A stretch of DNA of 64,000 nucleotides. Source: Octopus vulgaris. Taxonomy: Eukaryota. A program made the translations under genes and the position numbers. Positions within the stretch are counted from its first letter, which is position 1. Each line of letters starts with the position of its first letter. The stretch is from NCBI GenBank assembly GCA_951406725.2, contig OX597826.1, positions 12,090,001 through 12,154,000 on the forward strand. The letters are read 5' to 3'. The notes under the pieces were generated by a model, which saw only the letters and a list, made by a program, of their open reading frames with translations, made no database searches and had not been told where the DNA came from. Shown here piece after piece: positions 423 through 57,556 of this stretch.

Positions 423-1004
423 TGTGTGTGTGTATGTATAAAACAAGAAGACAAAAACATAAATGCTCTAAGAATCCTATTCTGAATAAAAAGAGAATGT
501 GTACACCTTCATGATAATATGCTATCGGTTTCAATTGTCAAAGAAAATCTAGTCATGAAATAAGAAAAAGGAAAAATAATTTGAAGTAAATTAAATTAAT
601 CTGTGATGAATGCAATTTTCAAAGTCCATTTGTTTATCATAGAAAAAGCACATGGCTATAGTTGTTTGTTTCCCACCGGTGGTTGCTTCCTCAACATATT
701 AATAGTAACAGTTTAGCAGTCACATATTATTACTCTTTGTAGCAGAACTGGTCACTGTTCCTTATTGACAATGCTGATATTAAAGAGCGGTTCGTAATGC
801 TATGGTGGTAATTTCAGAAGTAGCAGCAACAACGGAACAGGTGGTGGTAGTTGTGGCAGTAAGTGCTTCAATAATATAAATATTTTTAACAGCATACACA
901 CGCACACACACACACACACATACACACACACGCGCACACACATACACACACACACACACACGTATATGGAGATAAGAAGTTTATTCTAAATCAGGAACGT
1001 ATAC

Positions 1005-1367
1005 AGGGGAAATTGTTTTGGGGTTTGAAAATGCTCCTGTATCTCAAAACCTATAGTATTGTCCAAATTTTATAATAGATTTATATGAATTTTCAGCGAG
1101 CATATGACCATATATTACTGTCTATCTCCGTGAAACTCATAGGAATTTCTATGAATATTTGATCGTTGAAACATTTTTTCCGAATTTTCCCTTGAAACGT
1201 TAAACTCTCCTAAACCCTTTTCTCATTTAATTTTTTTTTTATATTTACCATTGATAAACAAAAGAATTGTCGAAACCGGTTTGATATTTGAATAAATTCT
1301 ATTACAAAATTAAAAAACGACTACACGTTTTGATATTCAGGTGCATTTTCAAACGCCAGAAGGAAAT

Positions 1368-1372
<5 letters not shown>
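1005..1372. mobile_element. old fold-back PLE-like element with HHR-like motif
   Basis: Diverged inverted arms ~1005-1095/~1280-1372 (GTTTGAAAATGCTCCTGTATCTCAAAAC vs rc GTTTGAAAATGCACCTGAATATCAAAAC); abuts (TA)n. Confidence 0.55.
1246..1286 (+). ncRNA. minimal hammerhead-like motif, U3-A8 variant
   Basis: TACCA-TTGATAA-ACA/AAAGAAT/TGT-C-GAAA-CCGG-TT-TGATA. Confidence 0.5.
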
Positions 1373-1400
<28 letters not shown>

Positions 1401-1402
<2 letters not shown>

Positions 1403-1517
1403 CAATAATAAAAGGGTAAAATTAATTAATTAATAATTAATTTTACAAGGTAGTGTTCAGTATGTAAAAATACCATTTACGGTATATTTAAAACATTACG
1501 TTATATAATTATATAAC

Positions 1518-1520
<3 letters not shown>
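1401..1520. repeat. short dispersed repeat inside (TA)n; second copy at ~23992-24138
   Basis: Shared TAAAATTAATTAATT...ACCATTTACGGTATATTTAAAACATTA in both TA-flanked copies. Confidence 0.7.
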
Positions 1521-1569
<49 letters not shown>

Positions 1570-2448
1570 GATAATCATTATTAGGTAATACATCGACTCA
1601 TCAGAGAGAAAGAGGGGGAATTTCCGTGTAGTCAATCGAATGCTATTTATAAATATGTGAAAAAGATGTTGTTTAAAAGTTACTGGCGTAGATATGCGTC
1701 GGTACAATCTTGTGCCAAAAATTTTGAAGAAAGATATACGTCTGTGGTAAAATTCTCAGCGGTAATCCATTATGGCTGTGCGTAATATAAATCCCATAAT
1801 TCAGTTCTCTTCAATGTCTAATTCATAAATGCAGAAAATAAAGGAATTTAAATTTTAGCCTTTTATATTTGTATATATAAAACTGGAAGATGTCGTTATA
1901 TTTTATACAAACGTAAAAATAGCCGTTTACTACCCCAATATAGAGCAAATTAATACATCCACTCTATGCAGGTCTCTGAGGATTTTTGGGAGGATATTAA
2001 AGATTTGTGAGCCCTTGAAATCCGGTTGTTGTTGTAACTAGTCTTGTATCTTGATGGCAATGTTGGGAATTTTGGCACTATGCAGTGTCGCTCCGTTCTG
2101 CACTTTCTGTAACTTTCTTTGTTAATACTTATTACAAGTCCTCCTAGCATTCTCCAGATGTGCACATATTTCCCACCATCGTTCTAGAGAGTTGTGTCTT
2201 AACTGTTTTTCCACCTTTTCCAGTAGCTGACACGTCACAATGAGACGATCTACTTTGTGTAACTTCGCTGGATTATTTCAATATGTTTAAGCCTGCTAAA
2301 TATTCTACCGCTTGCATTTGCCGAACCGCTAGGTCACGGGGATTCAAAGACACTGACACCGTTTGTCAAGCAGTAGTGATGGGTAAACACAGCAGAAAGA
2401 TACACACACAAATACATAGCTATACACTCACACAAATAGCTAGCTCCC

Positions 2449-2498
<50 letters not shown>

Positions 2499-2500
<2 letters not shown>

Positions 2501-2767
2501 CAACAATCAAGGAACGGCCATAATAGGCCATTCACCCACTAGAAATAACAGCCAATGTTTTTTAAATTTTCTCCTGGTTTACAGAATTAACTTTTATTTG
2601 CGGTTGAAGCTTTGGCTGTTATTTCTAGTGGGTGAATGGCCTATTATGGCCGTTCCTTGATTGTTGTTGTTGAACTTAAAAATGGTCTATGACTATTTAA
2701 TTTTTTCCTACTAGGCCGCTGGTGGCAAAAGAATTCTACAAAATTTTTTTTTGCCACCCTATATTGA

Positions 2768-2775
<8 letters not shown>
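2499..2775. mobile_element. fold-back element in (TA)n, no HHR seen
   Basis: Arms ~2499-2556/~2612-2669 are reverse complements; ~100 bp one-sided tail; TA tracts on both sides. Confidence 0.75.
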
Positions 2776-2821
<46 letters not shown>

Positions 2822-2846
2822 GCATATATATATATATATATATATA

Positions 2847-2882
<36 letters not shown>

Positions 2883-3016
2883 ATAAAAGGGCTTAGTAAA
2901 ATAAATTACTTTGCCACATACTGAACTCATTAGAAATAGCAGCCAAAAAAAGATTTTTTAGCCATTTCTAATACTTAAAGAAAATTTCTCTCAGATAGTG
3001 TTTACTCAAAATGCTC

Positions 3017-3071
<55 letters not shown>

Positions 3072-3074
<3 letters not shown>

Positions 3075-3331
3075 ATAAGTAAGGAAAAATTTTTTTAAAA
3101 ATGCAGAATGCTCAAATGAAAGAAAATTTTAATAAAATGAGAAAATGATAAAATATATAAATATATATATTTATTCAACCGGTTTTCGTCAATGTATGAC
3201 TTGTCAAGAATATTTATGTTTTAAGAAGTTTTTTTAAAAATTAGAAAGGAGCATTCTGCATTTTTAAAAAAAATTTTCCTTACTTATCATTTCTCCACGT
3301 GCGGTCAACACAACCCCACCATTTATTGACC
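3072..3331. mobile_element. fold-back PLE-like element in (TA)n
   Basis: Arms 3072-3113/3249-3290, tail 3291-3331, HHR-like motif in spacer. Confidence 0.75.
3172..3212 (-). ncRNA. minimal hammerhead-like motif, U3-A8 variant
   Basis: Minus strand TATTC-TTGACAA-GTCA/TACAT/TGAC-GAAAA-CCGG-TT-GAATA (one extra A). Confidence 0.6.
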
Positions 3332-3367
3332 TATATATATACATATATATATATGTATATATATATA

Positions 3368-3434
<67 letters not shown>

Positions 3435-3443
<9 letters not shown>

Positions 3444-3722
3444 AGAGATAGCAGTCTCCATCATCACACCATATAAAAGAATTTTATTTTAATACTTACT
3501 ACTCATTTCTAAATTTCTCTGCTACACGTGTTTATCGAGGTTCTTTTACCGTTCCTTAAGCACGCAGTGTTTTACAGTAAGTATTAAAATACAATTCTTT
3601 TGTATGGTGTGATGATGGGGACTGCTATCTCTAAATAACATATATTTCCTCATTGTGAATAATTCCTTTTATTTGAATTCCTGTGATGCCGGAATTTTTA
3701 TTCCCTAATAAATAAAATAAAA
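3435..3722. mobile_element. fold-back PLE-like element between (TG)n and (TA)n
   Basis: Arms ~3435-3500/3576-3640, tail to ~3722; very degenerate HHR trace on minus at 3520-3562 (palindromic ACACGTGT). Confidence 0.7.
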
Positions 3723-3735
3723 TTATATATTATAC

Positions 3736-3825
<90 letters not shown>

Positions 3826-3826
<1 letters not shown>

Positions 3827-4103
3827 GGAGATGTACTTGCATAGCAAGTGATTTGATCTGAGATCGTGTGCTGGAACGAAAATAATTGCAGCGTGGAAGG
3901 TGTTTGTAAGCCATTTAAGAAACACACAAAAGCCGTTCGATTCACTTCAACATTTAAGTTTAATTTGTCGATTTTTGTCAGTGAACAGGTCGCGGATTTT
4001 AGCGACGAAAATATTTTAACAAATTAAACTTAAATGTTGAAGTGAATCGAACGTCTTTTGTGTGTTTCTTAAATGGCTTACAAACACATTCCACGCTACA
4101 ATT

Positions 4104-4106
<3 letters not shown>
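3826..4106. mobile_element. fold-back PLE-like element in (TA)n
   Basis: Tail 3826-3880, arms 3881-3969/4018-4106, HHR in spacer. Confidence 0.8.
3974..4023 (+). ncRNA. minimal hammerhead motif, G3-C8 variant
   Basis: TTTGTCA-GTGAACA-G-GTCGC/GGATTTTA/GCGAC-GAAA-ATAT-TT-TAACAAA. Confidence 0.65.
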
Positions 4107-4160
<54 letters not shown>

Positions 4161-4162
<2 letters not shown>

Positions 4163-4300
4163 CCTCTTTCAGCTTCCGTCTACAAACTTCACTCACAAGC
4201 CCGAGAAAACACTTGGCCAAGGTGCTGCCACGCAATGAGACTCAAGCCGAAACTATGTGGTTGAGAAGGAAGCTCCTTGCCTTCCAGTCACGCCTGCGTC
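4161..4300 (-). mobile_element. SINE family A, diverged 5' fragment
   Basis: Similar to the head of full copies such as 19855-20263. Confidence 0.6.
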
Positions 4301-4312
4301 AATATATGTACG

Positions 4313-4344
<32 letters not shown>

Positions 4345-4898
4345 TCCATATAAAATATGTGCTTGTGTGTGTTAGAGGTGATACTTAGAAATTAAAACGA
4401 GCATTTAGTGATGTAAAGAATCGTAAATAGTTGTAAGATTGATATAAATTTCAATATGGAGATTTACTGCGAGTTGAAATTTCTCTTCAGGGGACTTATT
4501 GAAACAGACTAATTATACAGGAAAATGTTCAATATATAGTATTGCGTACGCAAGGTGGGGGAAAATTATTTATGTGCGAAGAGTGTTCTAAGTTTGGCCT
4601 GCTGTCAAATTGTAGTCGTAAATTTAATTCTTAGTTCTGGAGTTGAAAAAGGTCTTTAAATAAATGTGGCAAAGCAAATAAAATCTTTCTATAAATAGTG
4701 GATAATTAGTAAGTAATTCGGATTGTAATGAAAAGCCTAAAAGTTCTTTAAAGTCTAAACATTATGGTCATCCAGAGTTGAAAGTTCGTAATGGTTAGCT
4801 ATGGAAAAAGTGCTTCCAAAGAGTGCATCTGTTTCTGCATGTACTTCATATACATTCATATGTATGCATGTATGTATATATGTAAATATGTATGTATG

Positions 4899-4982
<84 letters not shown>

Positions 4983-4990
4983 TACATATA

Positions 4991-6220
4991 CAAGTGTTGG
5001 ACACAATAAAGGAAACACCTTAACATTTCAAGCAAATTTATTTTAATTTTGGACAGGACCACCTTTGGTAGTAATTACAGCTTGAATTCTATGGACTCGT
5101 ACAAAGTTTGAATTGTTTCAAAAGCAACTTTTGTCCATTCTTCAACTAAAACAGTCTCCTGTTCTTGTAGTGATGATGGTGGGGGATATCGACTCCTTAC
5201 TTGTTTTTCTAAAATGCACCATAAATGTCCAATAATGTTCAGATCTGTGGACTGTGGTGGCCAGATAAGATGTTCAACTTCCCTAGAATGTCCCCCGTGC
5301 CATTCACTAACAACTTTAGCTGTGTGAACTGGTGCATTATCATCCTGAAAGATTGTGTTTACCTCCTTTAACAGTCACGCAACTATTGGATGAATTTGTT
5401 CAGATAAAATGCTTAAATAGTCATGACTATTAATTCTCCTATGAAGGGAACCCATTGGACCGGCAGATTTCCAAGATATAATCCCCCAGATAATCACGGA
5501 TCCTCCTCCTTGTTTAACAGTTGGAAGAAAGCAGTGTGGGTCAAATGCTTCTTTTGGCTGTCTCCATATGTATACTCGGCTGGTGATCGGAAATAGGGTA
5601 AAGGATGACTTGTCTGAGAAAATAACATTCTTCCACTGATCTAGGGATCAATTGTGTAGGTTTTTACTCCACTCTAAAGCTTTGTAACGTTTGTTTTTGA
5701 AAGTGGTGGTTTTCTGATTGCAGCCCTCTCGTGAAATCCGGCTTTGTGCAGCTCCCGGCGAACAGTTTTAGTGGAAACTGGGTTCTCAACGTTGTCATTA
5801 AGCCCTGCAGTTATTTTGGGAGCTGTACTTTTGTGATCCCTTCTAACAATTCGCGTAAGAGTCCGACGGTCCCTATCTAAAAGGTTTTTCCCTCTTTCTC
5901 AAAGGCTGTCATTACTTTCGAGACATTACTTCTTGATACACCAAACATTTCGACTGTTTTGGTTACGCTAGCATCTACCATATGATCACCAACAATTTGA
6001 CGACTTTGAAAGTCCGATAGATCTGTCATTTTAATGAATTTTAAGTAACTTTTTCTGACAATATCTGAAATGAAAAACAGCAAATTTTGTAAAACATATT
6101 AAGCAACACTAATAATTAATCAAAGACTATAAAGATAAACAAGGTTTTGACGGTTTTATAGATATTTCAAAATTATGATGCTATGATGCTAGGTGTTTCC
6201 ATTATTTTGTCCAGCCCCTG
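4991..6220 (-). mobile_element. Tc1-family DNA transposon, decayed
   Basis: ~30 bp TIRs CAAGTGTTGGACACAATAAAGGAAACACCT / rc CAGGGGCTGGACAAAATAATGGAAACACCT; TA on left. Confidence 0.9.
5050..6029 (-). pseudogene. Tc1 transposase pseudogene
   Basis: MTDLSDFQ...GVSRSNVSKV HTH; WKNVIFSD; TVKQGGGSVIIWG; IFQDDNAPVH; WPPQSTDLNII; stops and frameshifts. Confidence 0.9.
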
Positions 6221-6338: not shown

Positions 6339-6912
6339 GGGGGTGTGATTGTGTATAGAAGAATATATTAATAAAATGAATTCCAACCTTGTCTGATTTT
6401 CACGTTTTATTACAATCTTATAATGATATAAGATAATATAATATAATAAAATAAAATAAAATAATAGAATGTTAAATGTTCATTCTGATTGAATTAGTAT
6501 TTTCATGCATTAAATTCTGCAATCTTCAGGTTGATGTAGTTGTGGCGACAGTCATGATGATTGGTCTAGGCAATCAGCTCAACCAACCAATCAGCTTAAG
6601 TAATTGAGTGATACTACACACTGATTGATCAGAATACAGTTTGCAAACCCTAGCAATCTGGAGCCTTCACAGCTGTATTTAAGGCACAGATTCAATCATC
6701 TCGCTACAGTCAAAAATTGTGAAGCATGACTGTCACCACTACTACATGAACCTGAAGATTGCAGAATTTAATGCAGGAAAGTACTTGTTCAATCAGAATG
6801 AACATTTAACATTCTGTTATTTTATTTTATTATATTATATTATCTTATATCATTATAATATTGTAAATAAAACGTGAAAATCAGACAAGGTTGGAATTCC
6901 TTTTATTAATAT
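6338..6912. mobile_element. fold-back PLE-like element in (TA)n, HHR in each arm
   Basis: Tail 6338-6365, arms ~6366-6556/6726-6912. Confidence 0.85.
6747..6791 (+). ncRNA. minimal type-I hammerhead ribozyme, canonical core
   Basis: TGAAC-CTGAAGA-TTGCA/GAATTTAA/TGCAG-GAAA-GTAC-TT-GTTCA; mutated mirror copy on minus at ~6490-6535. Confidence 0.8.
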
Positions 6913-7336: not shown

Positions 7337-7546
7337 TATACATATATATATATATATGTATATATATACATATATATGTATGTATATATATATATGTATG
7401 TTATATATATATACATATATATATATATCTATATATGCATACATATATAAATATATACACACACACAAACATATATATATATATACATATGTGTGTGAGT
7501 GCATATATATATATATAATGTATAATATACAATACAATACAATATA

Positions 7547-28509: not shown

Positions 28510-28565
<56 letters not shown>

Positions 28566-28568
<3 letters not shown>

Positions 28569-28700
28569 ACTTGCAGCGTGGAAGGTGTCTATAAGCCATT
28601 AAATTCACTTCAAAATTTGAGTCAAAATATTTTCGTCGCTTTGAATCCGCGTCCTGTTCACTGACAAAACTTCGTGCTGCATCTGAGAAAGTAACAATTA
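28566..28700 (-). mobile_element. single-arm relative of 3826-4106 with G3-C8 HHR at 28621-28665
   Basis: Minus GTCA-GTGAACA-G-GACGC/GGATTCAAA/GCGAC-GAAA-ATAT-TT-TGAC; abuts (TA)n. Confidence 0.75.
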
Positions 28701-28967
28701 GTTCATGGTATTATGTATGTATGTATGTATGTAGACGTGTCTGCGTGTGTGTATGTGTAAGTGCATGTAAGCGTATGTTTACGTACTAATAGGTGTGTCT
28801 GTTCAAGTTCGTCTGAAGGGAAACAGTTTTTGTATTTGGATGATATAACGCTTTCGTTTATCAATAAAGAACACGTCTGAAATAGCTGTAGTGAACTTTA
28901 CCCCATCTGTGTTCTTGTTTTAACACATGCATACGCACAGGCACGCACACACACACACACACACACA

Positions 28968-42632: not shown

Positions 42633-42900
42633 GATGCAAATCTGAACAAACACAAATGTTCACAAAATAAGAGACCCCTCAATACAATACATGACACTAT
42701 TACGAAATCCTGTCGTATCACAGTTTCACCATGTCACAATACTTACAGTATGTCATATTCACTACAATATGAAATAAACGTCAATCATGAAATACTTATT
42801 TCTCTCCTATTCTCTGCTTTCTTCCACGTGATGCCTATCTATTGATACATTTGACAAAGTGAACATTCTGAGAATTGAATATATTGGCTACTTACATAAT

Positions 42901-43330
42901 GAAATACCTATTTCTTTACTACCCACAAGGGGCTAAACACAGAGGGGAGCAAACAAAAGGACAGACAAACGGATTAAGTCGATTACATCGACCCCAGTGC
43001 GTAACTGGTTCTTAATTTATTGACCCCCGAAAGGATGAAAGGCAAAGTCGACCTCGGCGGAATTTGAACTCAGAACGTAACGGCCGACGAAATACCTATT
43101 TCTTTACTACCCACAAGGGGCTAAACACAGAGGGGCGAAAACAAGGACAGACAAACAGATTAAGTCGATTACATCGACCTCAATGTGTAACTGGTACTTA
43201 ATTTATCGACCCCGAAAGGATGAAAGGCAAAGTCGACCTCGGCGGAATTTGAACTCAGAACGTAACAGCAGATGAAATACGGCTACGTATTTAGCCCGGC
43301 GTGCTAACGATTCTGCCAGCTCGCCGCCCT
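42901..43330 (-). mobile_element. SINE family B head-to-tail dimer
   Basis: Two units, junction ~43090-43100, one flanking TSD CTACTTACATAAT. Confidence 0.9.
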
Positions 43331-55424: not shown

Positions 55425-55892
55425 GAACTCAGAACGCAGCAGACGAAATACCGCGAAGCCCGGCCTGCTAACGTTTCTTATTTCTTTATAGCCCACAAGG
55501 GGCTAAACATAGAGGGAACAAACAAGGACAGAGAAACGGATTAAGTCGATATCGACCCCAGTGCGTAACTGGTACTTATTTAATTGACCCCGAAAGGATG
55601 AAAGGCAAAGTCGACCTTTGCGGAATTTGAACTCAGAACGCAACGGCGGACGAAATACCTATTTCTTTATCACCCACAAGGGGCTAAACATAGAGGGGAC
55701 AAACAAGGACAGAAATTGGTATTAAGTCGATTACATCGACCCCAGTGCGTAACTGGTATTTAATTTATCGACCCCGAAAGGATGAAAGGCAAAGTCGACC
55801 TCGGCGGAATTTGAACTCAGAACGTAACGGCAGACGTTATACCGCTTCGCATTTCGCCCGGCGCGCTAACGTTTCTGCCAGCTCACCACCTT
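55425..55892 (-). mobile_element. SINE family B multimer (two units plus partial third)
   Basis: Junctions at ~55660 and ~55478. Confidence 0.85.
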
Positions 55893-57111: not shown

Positions 57112-57556
57112 AGCTGGCAGTAACGTTAGCACACCGGGCGAAGTGCTTAGCGGTATTTCGTCTGTCGCTACGTTCTGAGTTCAAATTCCTCCGAGGTCGA
57201 CTTTGACATTCATCCTTTCGGGGTCGATTAAATAAGTACCAGTTATGCACTGGGGTCGATATAATCGACTTAATCCCTTTGTCTGTCCTTGTTTGTCCTC
57301 TCTGTGTTTAGCCCCTTGTGAGTAGTAAAGAGATAAGAAACGTTAGCAGGCCGGGCGAAATGCCTAGCGGTATTTTGTCTGCCGCTACGTTCTGAGTTCA
57401 AATTCCGCCGAGGTCGACTTTGCCTTTCATCCTTTCGGGGTCGATTAAATAAGTACCAGTTTCGCACTGGCATCGATGTAATCGACTTAATCCGTTTGTC
57501 TGTCCTTGTTTGTCCCCTCTATGTTTAGCCCCTTGTGGGTAATAAAAAAATAAGAT
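57112..57556 (+). mobile_element. SINE family B dimer
   Basis: Junction GAGATAA|GAAACGTTAGC at ~57336. Confidence 0.9.

Follow-up and report, generated by a model that had tools for sequence, protein, structure and literature searches.

Whether a hammerhead ribozyme can work in nature with its core pair turned round is the question raised by a repeat in Octopus vulgaris (contig OX597826.1, positions 12,090,001 to 12,154,000; these 64,000 nucleotides are referred to below as the window). This pair, which joins positions 3 and 8, lies at the heart of the hammerhead's active site, where C3-G8 positions the ribose of nucleotide 8. A first-pass annotation of the window had described a hammerhead layout with a GUGAACA core in place of CUGANGA, in two copies, and had proposed that G3-C8 is a family-level covariation maintained by function. 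We find this layout at 3974-4023 on the plus strand and at 28621-28669 on the minus strand (Table 1). On balance, and with considerable room for error, we consider that the motif is the pseudo-LTR (long terminal repeat) hammerhead of a Nematis-like Penelope-like element (PLE) in which the pair has been flipped to G3-C8, and that it is likely to cleave itself slowly, as two copies and probably with the help of a protein. The assignment to the pseudo-LTR of a PLE, with a partner copy predicted to be needed for stem III, goes beyond what had been annotated. Published papers are cited here for the sections that bear on this motif.

Parent element of the motif

The motif is a dispersed repeat. A family pattern that left the 7-nt core free gave 1,935 exact matches across the 2.8-Gb genome and none for the reversed control, and an anchor placed downstream of the core gave 4,812 genome matches vs 38 for its control. 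In 29 of 30 loci, which were found by the end of the open reading frame (ORF), the motif lies 0.9-1.1 kb downstream of this ORF and on the same strand. The ORF has 1,025 codons and a GIY-YIG match above the Pfam cut-off at its C-terminus; its reverse transcriptase (RT) motifs were recognised by eye, with no RT match in Pfam. The family is a PLE with a single ORF that joins RT to a C-terminal GIY-YIG domain. One tandem copy (L339) carries the direct repeat ahead of the ORF, and there 56 nt separate the predicted cut from the start codon that follows it. The family also shows (TA)n targets and inverted arms truncated at the 5' end, with one arm bearing a tail, and the hairpin around copy 1 in the window is accounted for by this inverted-arm architecture.

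Within the PLEs, the element resembles the Nematis clade (PMC8557442), as judged from the sequence. Shared features are the order of RT, short Cys linker and GIY-YIG, (TA)n as the target, and an inverted 5'-truncated arm with the tail on one arm. A short CX2-5CxxC linker is one mark of the clade, and the endonuclease linker CX3CxxC of the octopus element and its spacing resemble the printed Nematis rows. This placement was made by eye against the printed endonuclease rows, as our tree held no reference Nematis sequences, and the long 3' untranslated region (UTR) of the octopus element (~1 kb) is unlike Nematis. PLE protein remnants were found neither in the window nor near 27 copies of an old subfamily described below, and those old copies are therefore linked to the family by the similarity of their 3'-end DNA only.

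Two other assignments were considered and rejected. At two loci (L018 and L031) a PLE ORF lies upstream of a G3-C8 copy; that ORF is part of another family, which has a U3-A8 motif of its own, and the order at both is the foreign ORF, its U3-A8 motif, (TA)n and then the truncated G3-C8 copy. A non-LTR retrozyme was also rejected, as there is no tandem array at either window copy and the copies, which are dispersed, represent ends of an element with an ORF. At L031 (~7500-7540), the foreign PLE, Neptune-like by eye, carries a minimal U3-A8 hammerhead, and the G3-C8 copy is inserted into its (TA)n tail. The PLE remnant is adjoined by a long retrotransposon of the non-LTR type (L031 ~550-5450, minus strand), in which ORF1, endonuclease and RT frames are present.

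Fixation of G3-C8 across subfamilies

The proposed check on a family consensus bore out the fixation of both positions. Among the first 100 of the 1,935 matches, 95 read GTGAACA, 99 have G3 and 98 have C8, while CTGANGA is found in none. In an alignment of 114 copies from 90 loci, GTGAACA is present in 103, GTGAAGA in three and other single variants in five, with three copies unparsed. When 30 loci were anchored downstream instead, 23 reach the core, all 23 with G3 and C8, and the other seven stop short. All 107 young or middle copies that were counted have U at position 17. Among sequencing runs, 20 of 21 rows, with five organism codes, contain at least half of the sequence words, no RNA run being listed among them, and there are no G3 or C8 variants among the listed rows of contigs from four runs. 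Separately, one run that we guess to be RNA (X4) shows many A>G differences at L095:5896-6122, at 15 places vs one in X17 and X1; these may reflect A-to-I editing of inverted-repeat RNA, or alleles.

The appearance of the pair in two separate copies, which had been offered as an argument for covariation, is weak evidence, because both copies descend from one master element of the same repeat family and are not independent. Common descent could by itself fix the pair in a young family, and we therefore examined older layers. The middle subfamily differs in loop II and has the same core as the young one (its members seem over-represented on contig C16 among the best matches). The pattern for the old subfamily gave 27 matches, one of which (L267) looks young, and none in the control. 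At position 3, 21 have G, three A, two T and one C; 26 of the 27 have C at position 8, and C3-G8 occurs in none. This should be read with the selection in mind, as the pattern fixed most of the core and left only positions 3, 7 and 8 free. Compared with the majority line of the old 3' flank, old copies are 51-83% alike and young copies ~78%. From the old to the young consensus, A replaces C at N7, loop II is altered, the palindrome lengthens from AATT to AATATT, and one pair of stem I differs on both sides, with G3-C8 unchanged. G3-C8 is fixed in both young and old subfamilies.

These layers bear on a founder effect, in which a ribozyme that was dead or weak would have acquired two neutral changes within a single master element, and these would have spread through thousands of unselected copies. 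The fixation in the young family does follow from common descent, a single G3-C8 origin is seen in this genome, and the old set was picked with the pattern just described. Nonetheless, if two of the 11 core positions changed at random, they would be positions 3 and 8 with Watson-Crick pairing restored in only about 1 in 165 cases (1/55 x 1/3), and one subfamily after another kept the pair, the palindrome and both stems, with changes on both sides, over a flank divergence of ~22%. We hold a founder effect to be improbable.

Sister families and covariation at positions 3 and 8

A pattern with the canonical C3-G8 core gave 3,560 genome matches vs 389 for the control. The first 100 are mostly sister families, with a stem II pair swapped from G-C to A-U relative to the G3-C8 family. 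Two sister families in the same genome carry C3-G8 in a homologous fold; the protein of the second is 52% identical, and its motif, at the same position, combines C3-G8 with C9 and with a loop III that is not palindromic. Related elements were found at 62 metagenome loci, most of them too short or unreadable; the motif stands just behind the ORF in nine, eight with C3-G8 and one with U3-A8. The covariation proposed for the family is thus seen between families: G3-C8 is fixed in one, and the homologous ribozymes of sister and related PLEs have C3-G8 or U3-A8.

In an alignment of 12 rows, the 3-8 pair is C-G in six, G-C in five and U-A in one, and four of the five stem II pairs are changed on both sides. 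The covariation score of these hand-picked and related rows was reached by none of 500 shuffles and was far lower in slid controls. Positions U4, G5, A6, G10.1, G12, A13, A14 and A15.1 are identical in all 12 rows against a background of changing stems and loops, G10.1-C11.1 is G-C in 11 of 12, and the extra G after A9 is also common in the relatives. A quick tree, in which the pairs of seven labels (L100, L101, L102, L116, L120, L122 and L159) were read by eye and the root is unsure, joins the G3-C8 family to two C3-G8 sisters (support 99) among C3-G8 relatives. As sisters and relatives carry C3-G8, a derived G3-C8 with one origin is the simplest reading. On these sequence comparisons, the three-state covariation at positions 3 and 8 (C-G, U-A, G-C) is real and G3-C8 is the derived state. 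A search with a short stem II for unrelated G3-C8 families gave 465 matches vs 365 in the control; the recognisable ones among the first 100 listed are the G3-C8 lineage or chance, and an independent family did not turn up there.

The homologous folds also bear on whether the motif is a hammerhead at all. A chance look-alike within an inverted repeat might be suspected, as Rfam gives no hammerhead match at either copy in local scans, nor among 150 of 254 window matches listed, and as neither window copy folds better than its shuffles (z of -1.30 for copy 1 and +0.44 for copy 2). Rfam misses the canonical-core sister as well, and its failure can therefore be attributed to the minimal architecture. 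An intact family copy forms stems I and II (z of -2.96, 3 of 200 shuffles equally good), the motif has the position and fold of the canonical hammerheads of related PLEs, and the signature is present around three helices (U4 G5 A6, A9, G12 A13 A14, A15.1-U16.1 and H17). What the motif lacks is the literal CUGANGA consensus, with a Watson-Crick 3-8 pair retained; that CUGANGA-based searches pass it by, as had been pointed out, is true by definition of such a descriptor. A chance origin is effectively refuted by the homologous folds and the covariation, and we give it almost no credence.

Some relatives also vary at position 9. One sister (L192-L221; e.g. L197, motif at ~4640) is very young and has an intact 1,312-codon ORF and a fixed C9 instead of A9, whereas other genomic copies have A9 and C17. 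A metagenome PLE (L100) has, by eye, a U3-A8 core with C9 just 3' of its ORF. A9C may recur in this PLE clade.

Proposed mechanism of cleavage

In the mechanism that we favour, two motifs in one tandem transcript would pair through the AAUAUU palindrome and so build stem III. Like C3-G8, the G3-C8 pair would then keep the position-8 ribose in place within the active site, and the RNA would be cut after U17, which would trim the precursor just ahead of the ORF. With U17 in place of C17, stem I would be less prone to extension by an inhibitory G3-N17 pair. Taken together, a slow, protein-assisted double hammerhead would process the tandem transcripts.

Published work on related ribozymes is partly in line with this. 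Minimal hammerheads of metazoan PLEs cleave weakly and only as a dimer (PMC4209133). In the hammerhead of a lizard PLE (Anolis PAc), the single changes C3G and G8C are dead and the double is partly active when assisted by protein, and cleavage needs the element's protein (PMC11167929). Elsewhere the G8C single costs 10^5-fold (PMC8495972), and G3-C8 is stated to work better without C17, with the data not shown there (PMC3884650). In our predictions, the probability of G3-N17 pairing is 0.98 with C17, 0.67 with U17 and 0 with A17, and when 450 nt of context are folded, both stems form and the remaining core positions are unpaired. U17 is consistent with the mechanism but is neither a specific co-change nor proof of it, because the C3-G8 relatives also have U17. 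The sequence evidence indirectly suggests that the flipped pair is maintained by function.

Several observations weigh against cleavage as the function. The G3-U17 pair is still predicted to be able to extend stem I, and U17 is common in relatives with C3-G8. A bare AAUAUU duplex is worth only -0.2 kcal/mol, and the unconstrained fold of the dimer is not the double hammerhead. Copies in the genome show no clustering of their 5' ends at the cut: among the first 100 listed for the downstream anchor, 91 read through it, three end within 3 nt and none exactly there. The engineered G3-C8 double was only partly restored in the work cited above, in which cleavage was also dispensable for insertion in vitro (PMC11167929). 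The five G-C rows of our alignment are one lineage and hence one G3-C8 event, not five. Finally, the very young A9C sister, with its intact ORF and non-palindromic loop III, thrives.

The missing pile-up, the thriving A9C sister and the dispensability in vitro would all fit a fold, including its 3-8 pair, that is retained for some task besides cleavage, such as binding of the element's own protein or a 5'-UTR or replication signal, with negligible cutting. For the lizard element, the cited sections also report no RNA-seq ends at the cut (PMC11167929), and Naiad PLEs are described as wholly without canonical hammerheads (PMC8557442). Moreover, every route from C3-G8 to G3-C8 crosses a mismatched state that is reported dead. 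A non-cutting job is less easily reconciled with the description of the 3-8 pair as a feature of the active conformation (PMC3884650), and with the invariance of the eight core positions listed above in a motif whose stems and loops turn over. We regard it as unlikely, though of appreciable weight, and retain slow cleavage as the preferred function. As the A9C sister thrives and the route to G3-C8 needs a mismatched step, the core's constraint on cutting may be loose or intermittent.

Relation to known hammerheads

The closest published counterparts are the minimal type I PLE hammerheads of PMC4209133, which share the location in the pseudo-LTR, the extra nucleotide that separates position 9 from 10.1, G10.1-C11.1 and the order GAAA-N-palindrome-N-U-H, and which occur mostly as solo truncated copies and opposite-strand pairs. 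They differ in the core pair, as only C3-G8 and U3-A8 are given there and none of the 56 rows of Fig. S3 has G3-C8; the extra nucleotide is G in the octopus family vs H in their consensus. Judged by sequence features, everything except the core pair fits this published dimer-type hammerhead. The natural U3-A8 variants (Perreault 2011, PMC3088659; the S. mansoni Cercyon PLE) share a Watson-Crick covariation at positions 3 and 8; U3-A8, however, keeps the pyrimidine-purine order and can be reached through a U-G wobble, whereas G3-C8 needs two transversions through a mismatch. The Anolis PAc double (PMC11167929) has the same pair in a PLE ribozyme, with partial, protein-assisted activity, but it is a laboratory mutant of a Poseidon element, while the octopus pair is natural, fixed and long-lived. 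A natural G3-C8 hammerhead was not found in the full-text literature searched, a coverage that leaves out several key papers and some supplements.

We put forward tentatively, at slightly less than an even chance, that an active natural G3-C8 hammerhead, otherwise known just from a laboratory rescue mutant, crossed a dead intermediate in one Penelope lineage, was kept through waves of amplification and marks a hidden class of ribozymes. The G3-C8 case itself is well supported, because the copies number in the thousands and come with a parent element, with old subfamilies and with sisters of canonical core. If true, the hidden class would escape both CUGANGA and UUGANAA descriptors, which suggests that descriptor-based censuses undercount hammerheads, perhaps also in PLEs called hammerhead-free. 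A fixed, long-lived G-C would complete the natural covariation evidence at a pair for which nature is reported, in the literature searched, to use C-G and U-A. The natural series of C3-G8, U3-A8, G3-C8 and A9C would then probe whether Penelope elements need cleavage (PMC8557442, PMC11167929), and, with C3-G8, G3-C8 and A9C sisters in one genome, this need is directly testable.

Anatomy of the window copies and other repeats in the window

The two window copies belong to one repeat family and to different subfamilies, and both are decayed, 5'-truncated insertions of one PLE family. The first-pass placement of stems I, II and III as in a hammerhead stands as a layout, with two corrections: stem III is a 6-nt palindrome and no true hairpin (the dimer type), and both copies are damaged in their stems. 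In copy 2, stem II has an A-A mismatch (28652) and the 3' strand of stem I has lost 9 nt. The window copies themselves would probably not cut.

Table 1 Features of the two hammerhead copies and of the PLE insertions that carry them. Positions are those of the window.
Feature	Position	Strand	Remarks
Hammerhead copy 1, minimal type I	3974..4023	+	second pair of stem I mismatched at 4018
Copy 1, stem I	3974-3980 (5' strand), 4017-4023 (3' strand)	+	
Copy 1, core box GTGAACA	3981..3987	+	G3=3981, C8=3986, A9=3987
Copy 1, extra nucleotide after A9	G3988	+	
Copy 1, stem II (5 bp, 8-nt loop)	3989..4006	+	3989-3993 with 4002-4006; closing pair G10.1-C11.1
Copy 1, G12-A13-A14-A15.1 (GAAA)	4007-4010	+	
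Copy 1, palindrome AATATT	4010-4015	+	predicted intermolecular stem III
Copy 1, U17	4016	+	predicted cut after 4016; consensus in the PMC4209133 supplement
Start codon (ATG) of the element's ORF in the arrangement where a tandem repeat precedes the ORF	4073..4075	+	56 nt past predicted cut
Direct 5'-truncated copy of the PLE 3' end	3970..4106	+	96% to a young copy; ends in (TA)n
Inverted, more truncated copy with extra 3' tail	3827..3969	-	pairs with 4018-4106 in transcript
Hammerhead copy 2, middle-aged subfamily	28621..28669	-	G3=28661, C8=28656, U17=28625
Older 5'-truncated copy of the same PLE family	28565..28769	-	adjoins (TA)n

A generic hammerhead scan of the window returned three candidates: besides copy 1, these are a motif with the canonical core at 6752 and a weak candidate at 42875. 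The motif at 6752 lies in another inverted pair of short repeats inside (TA)n (6367-6556 and 6725-6910), each arm of which contains a minimal canonical-core hammerhead (CTGAAGA at 6752) with a palindromic GTAC loop and a U-G at the base of stem II; this pair is probably the end of another PLE family. Elsewhere in the window, tandem dimers of a ~185-217-nt repeat resembling short interspersed elements (SINEs) lie at 42901-43280, 55479-55843 and 57122-57555, and these may resemble octopus SINEs.
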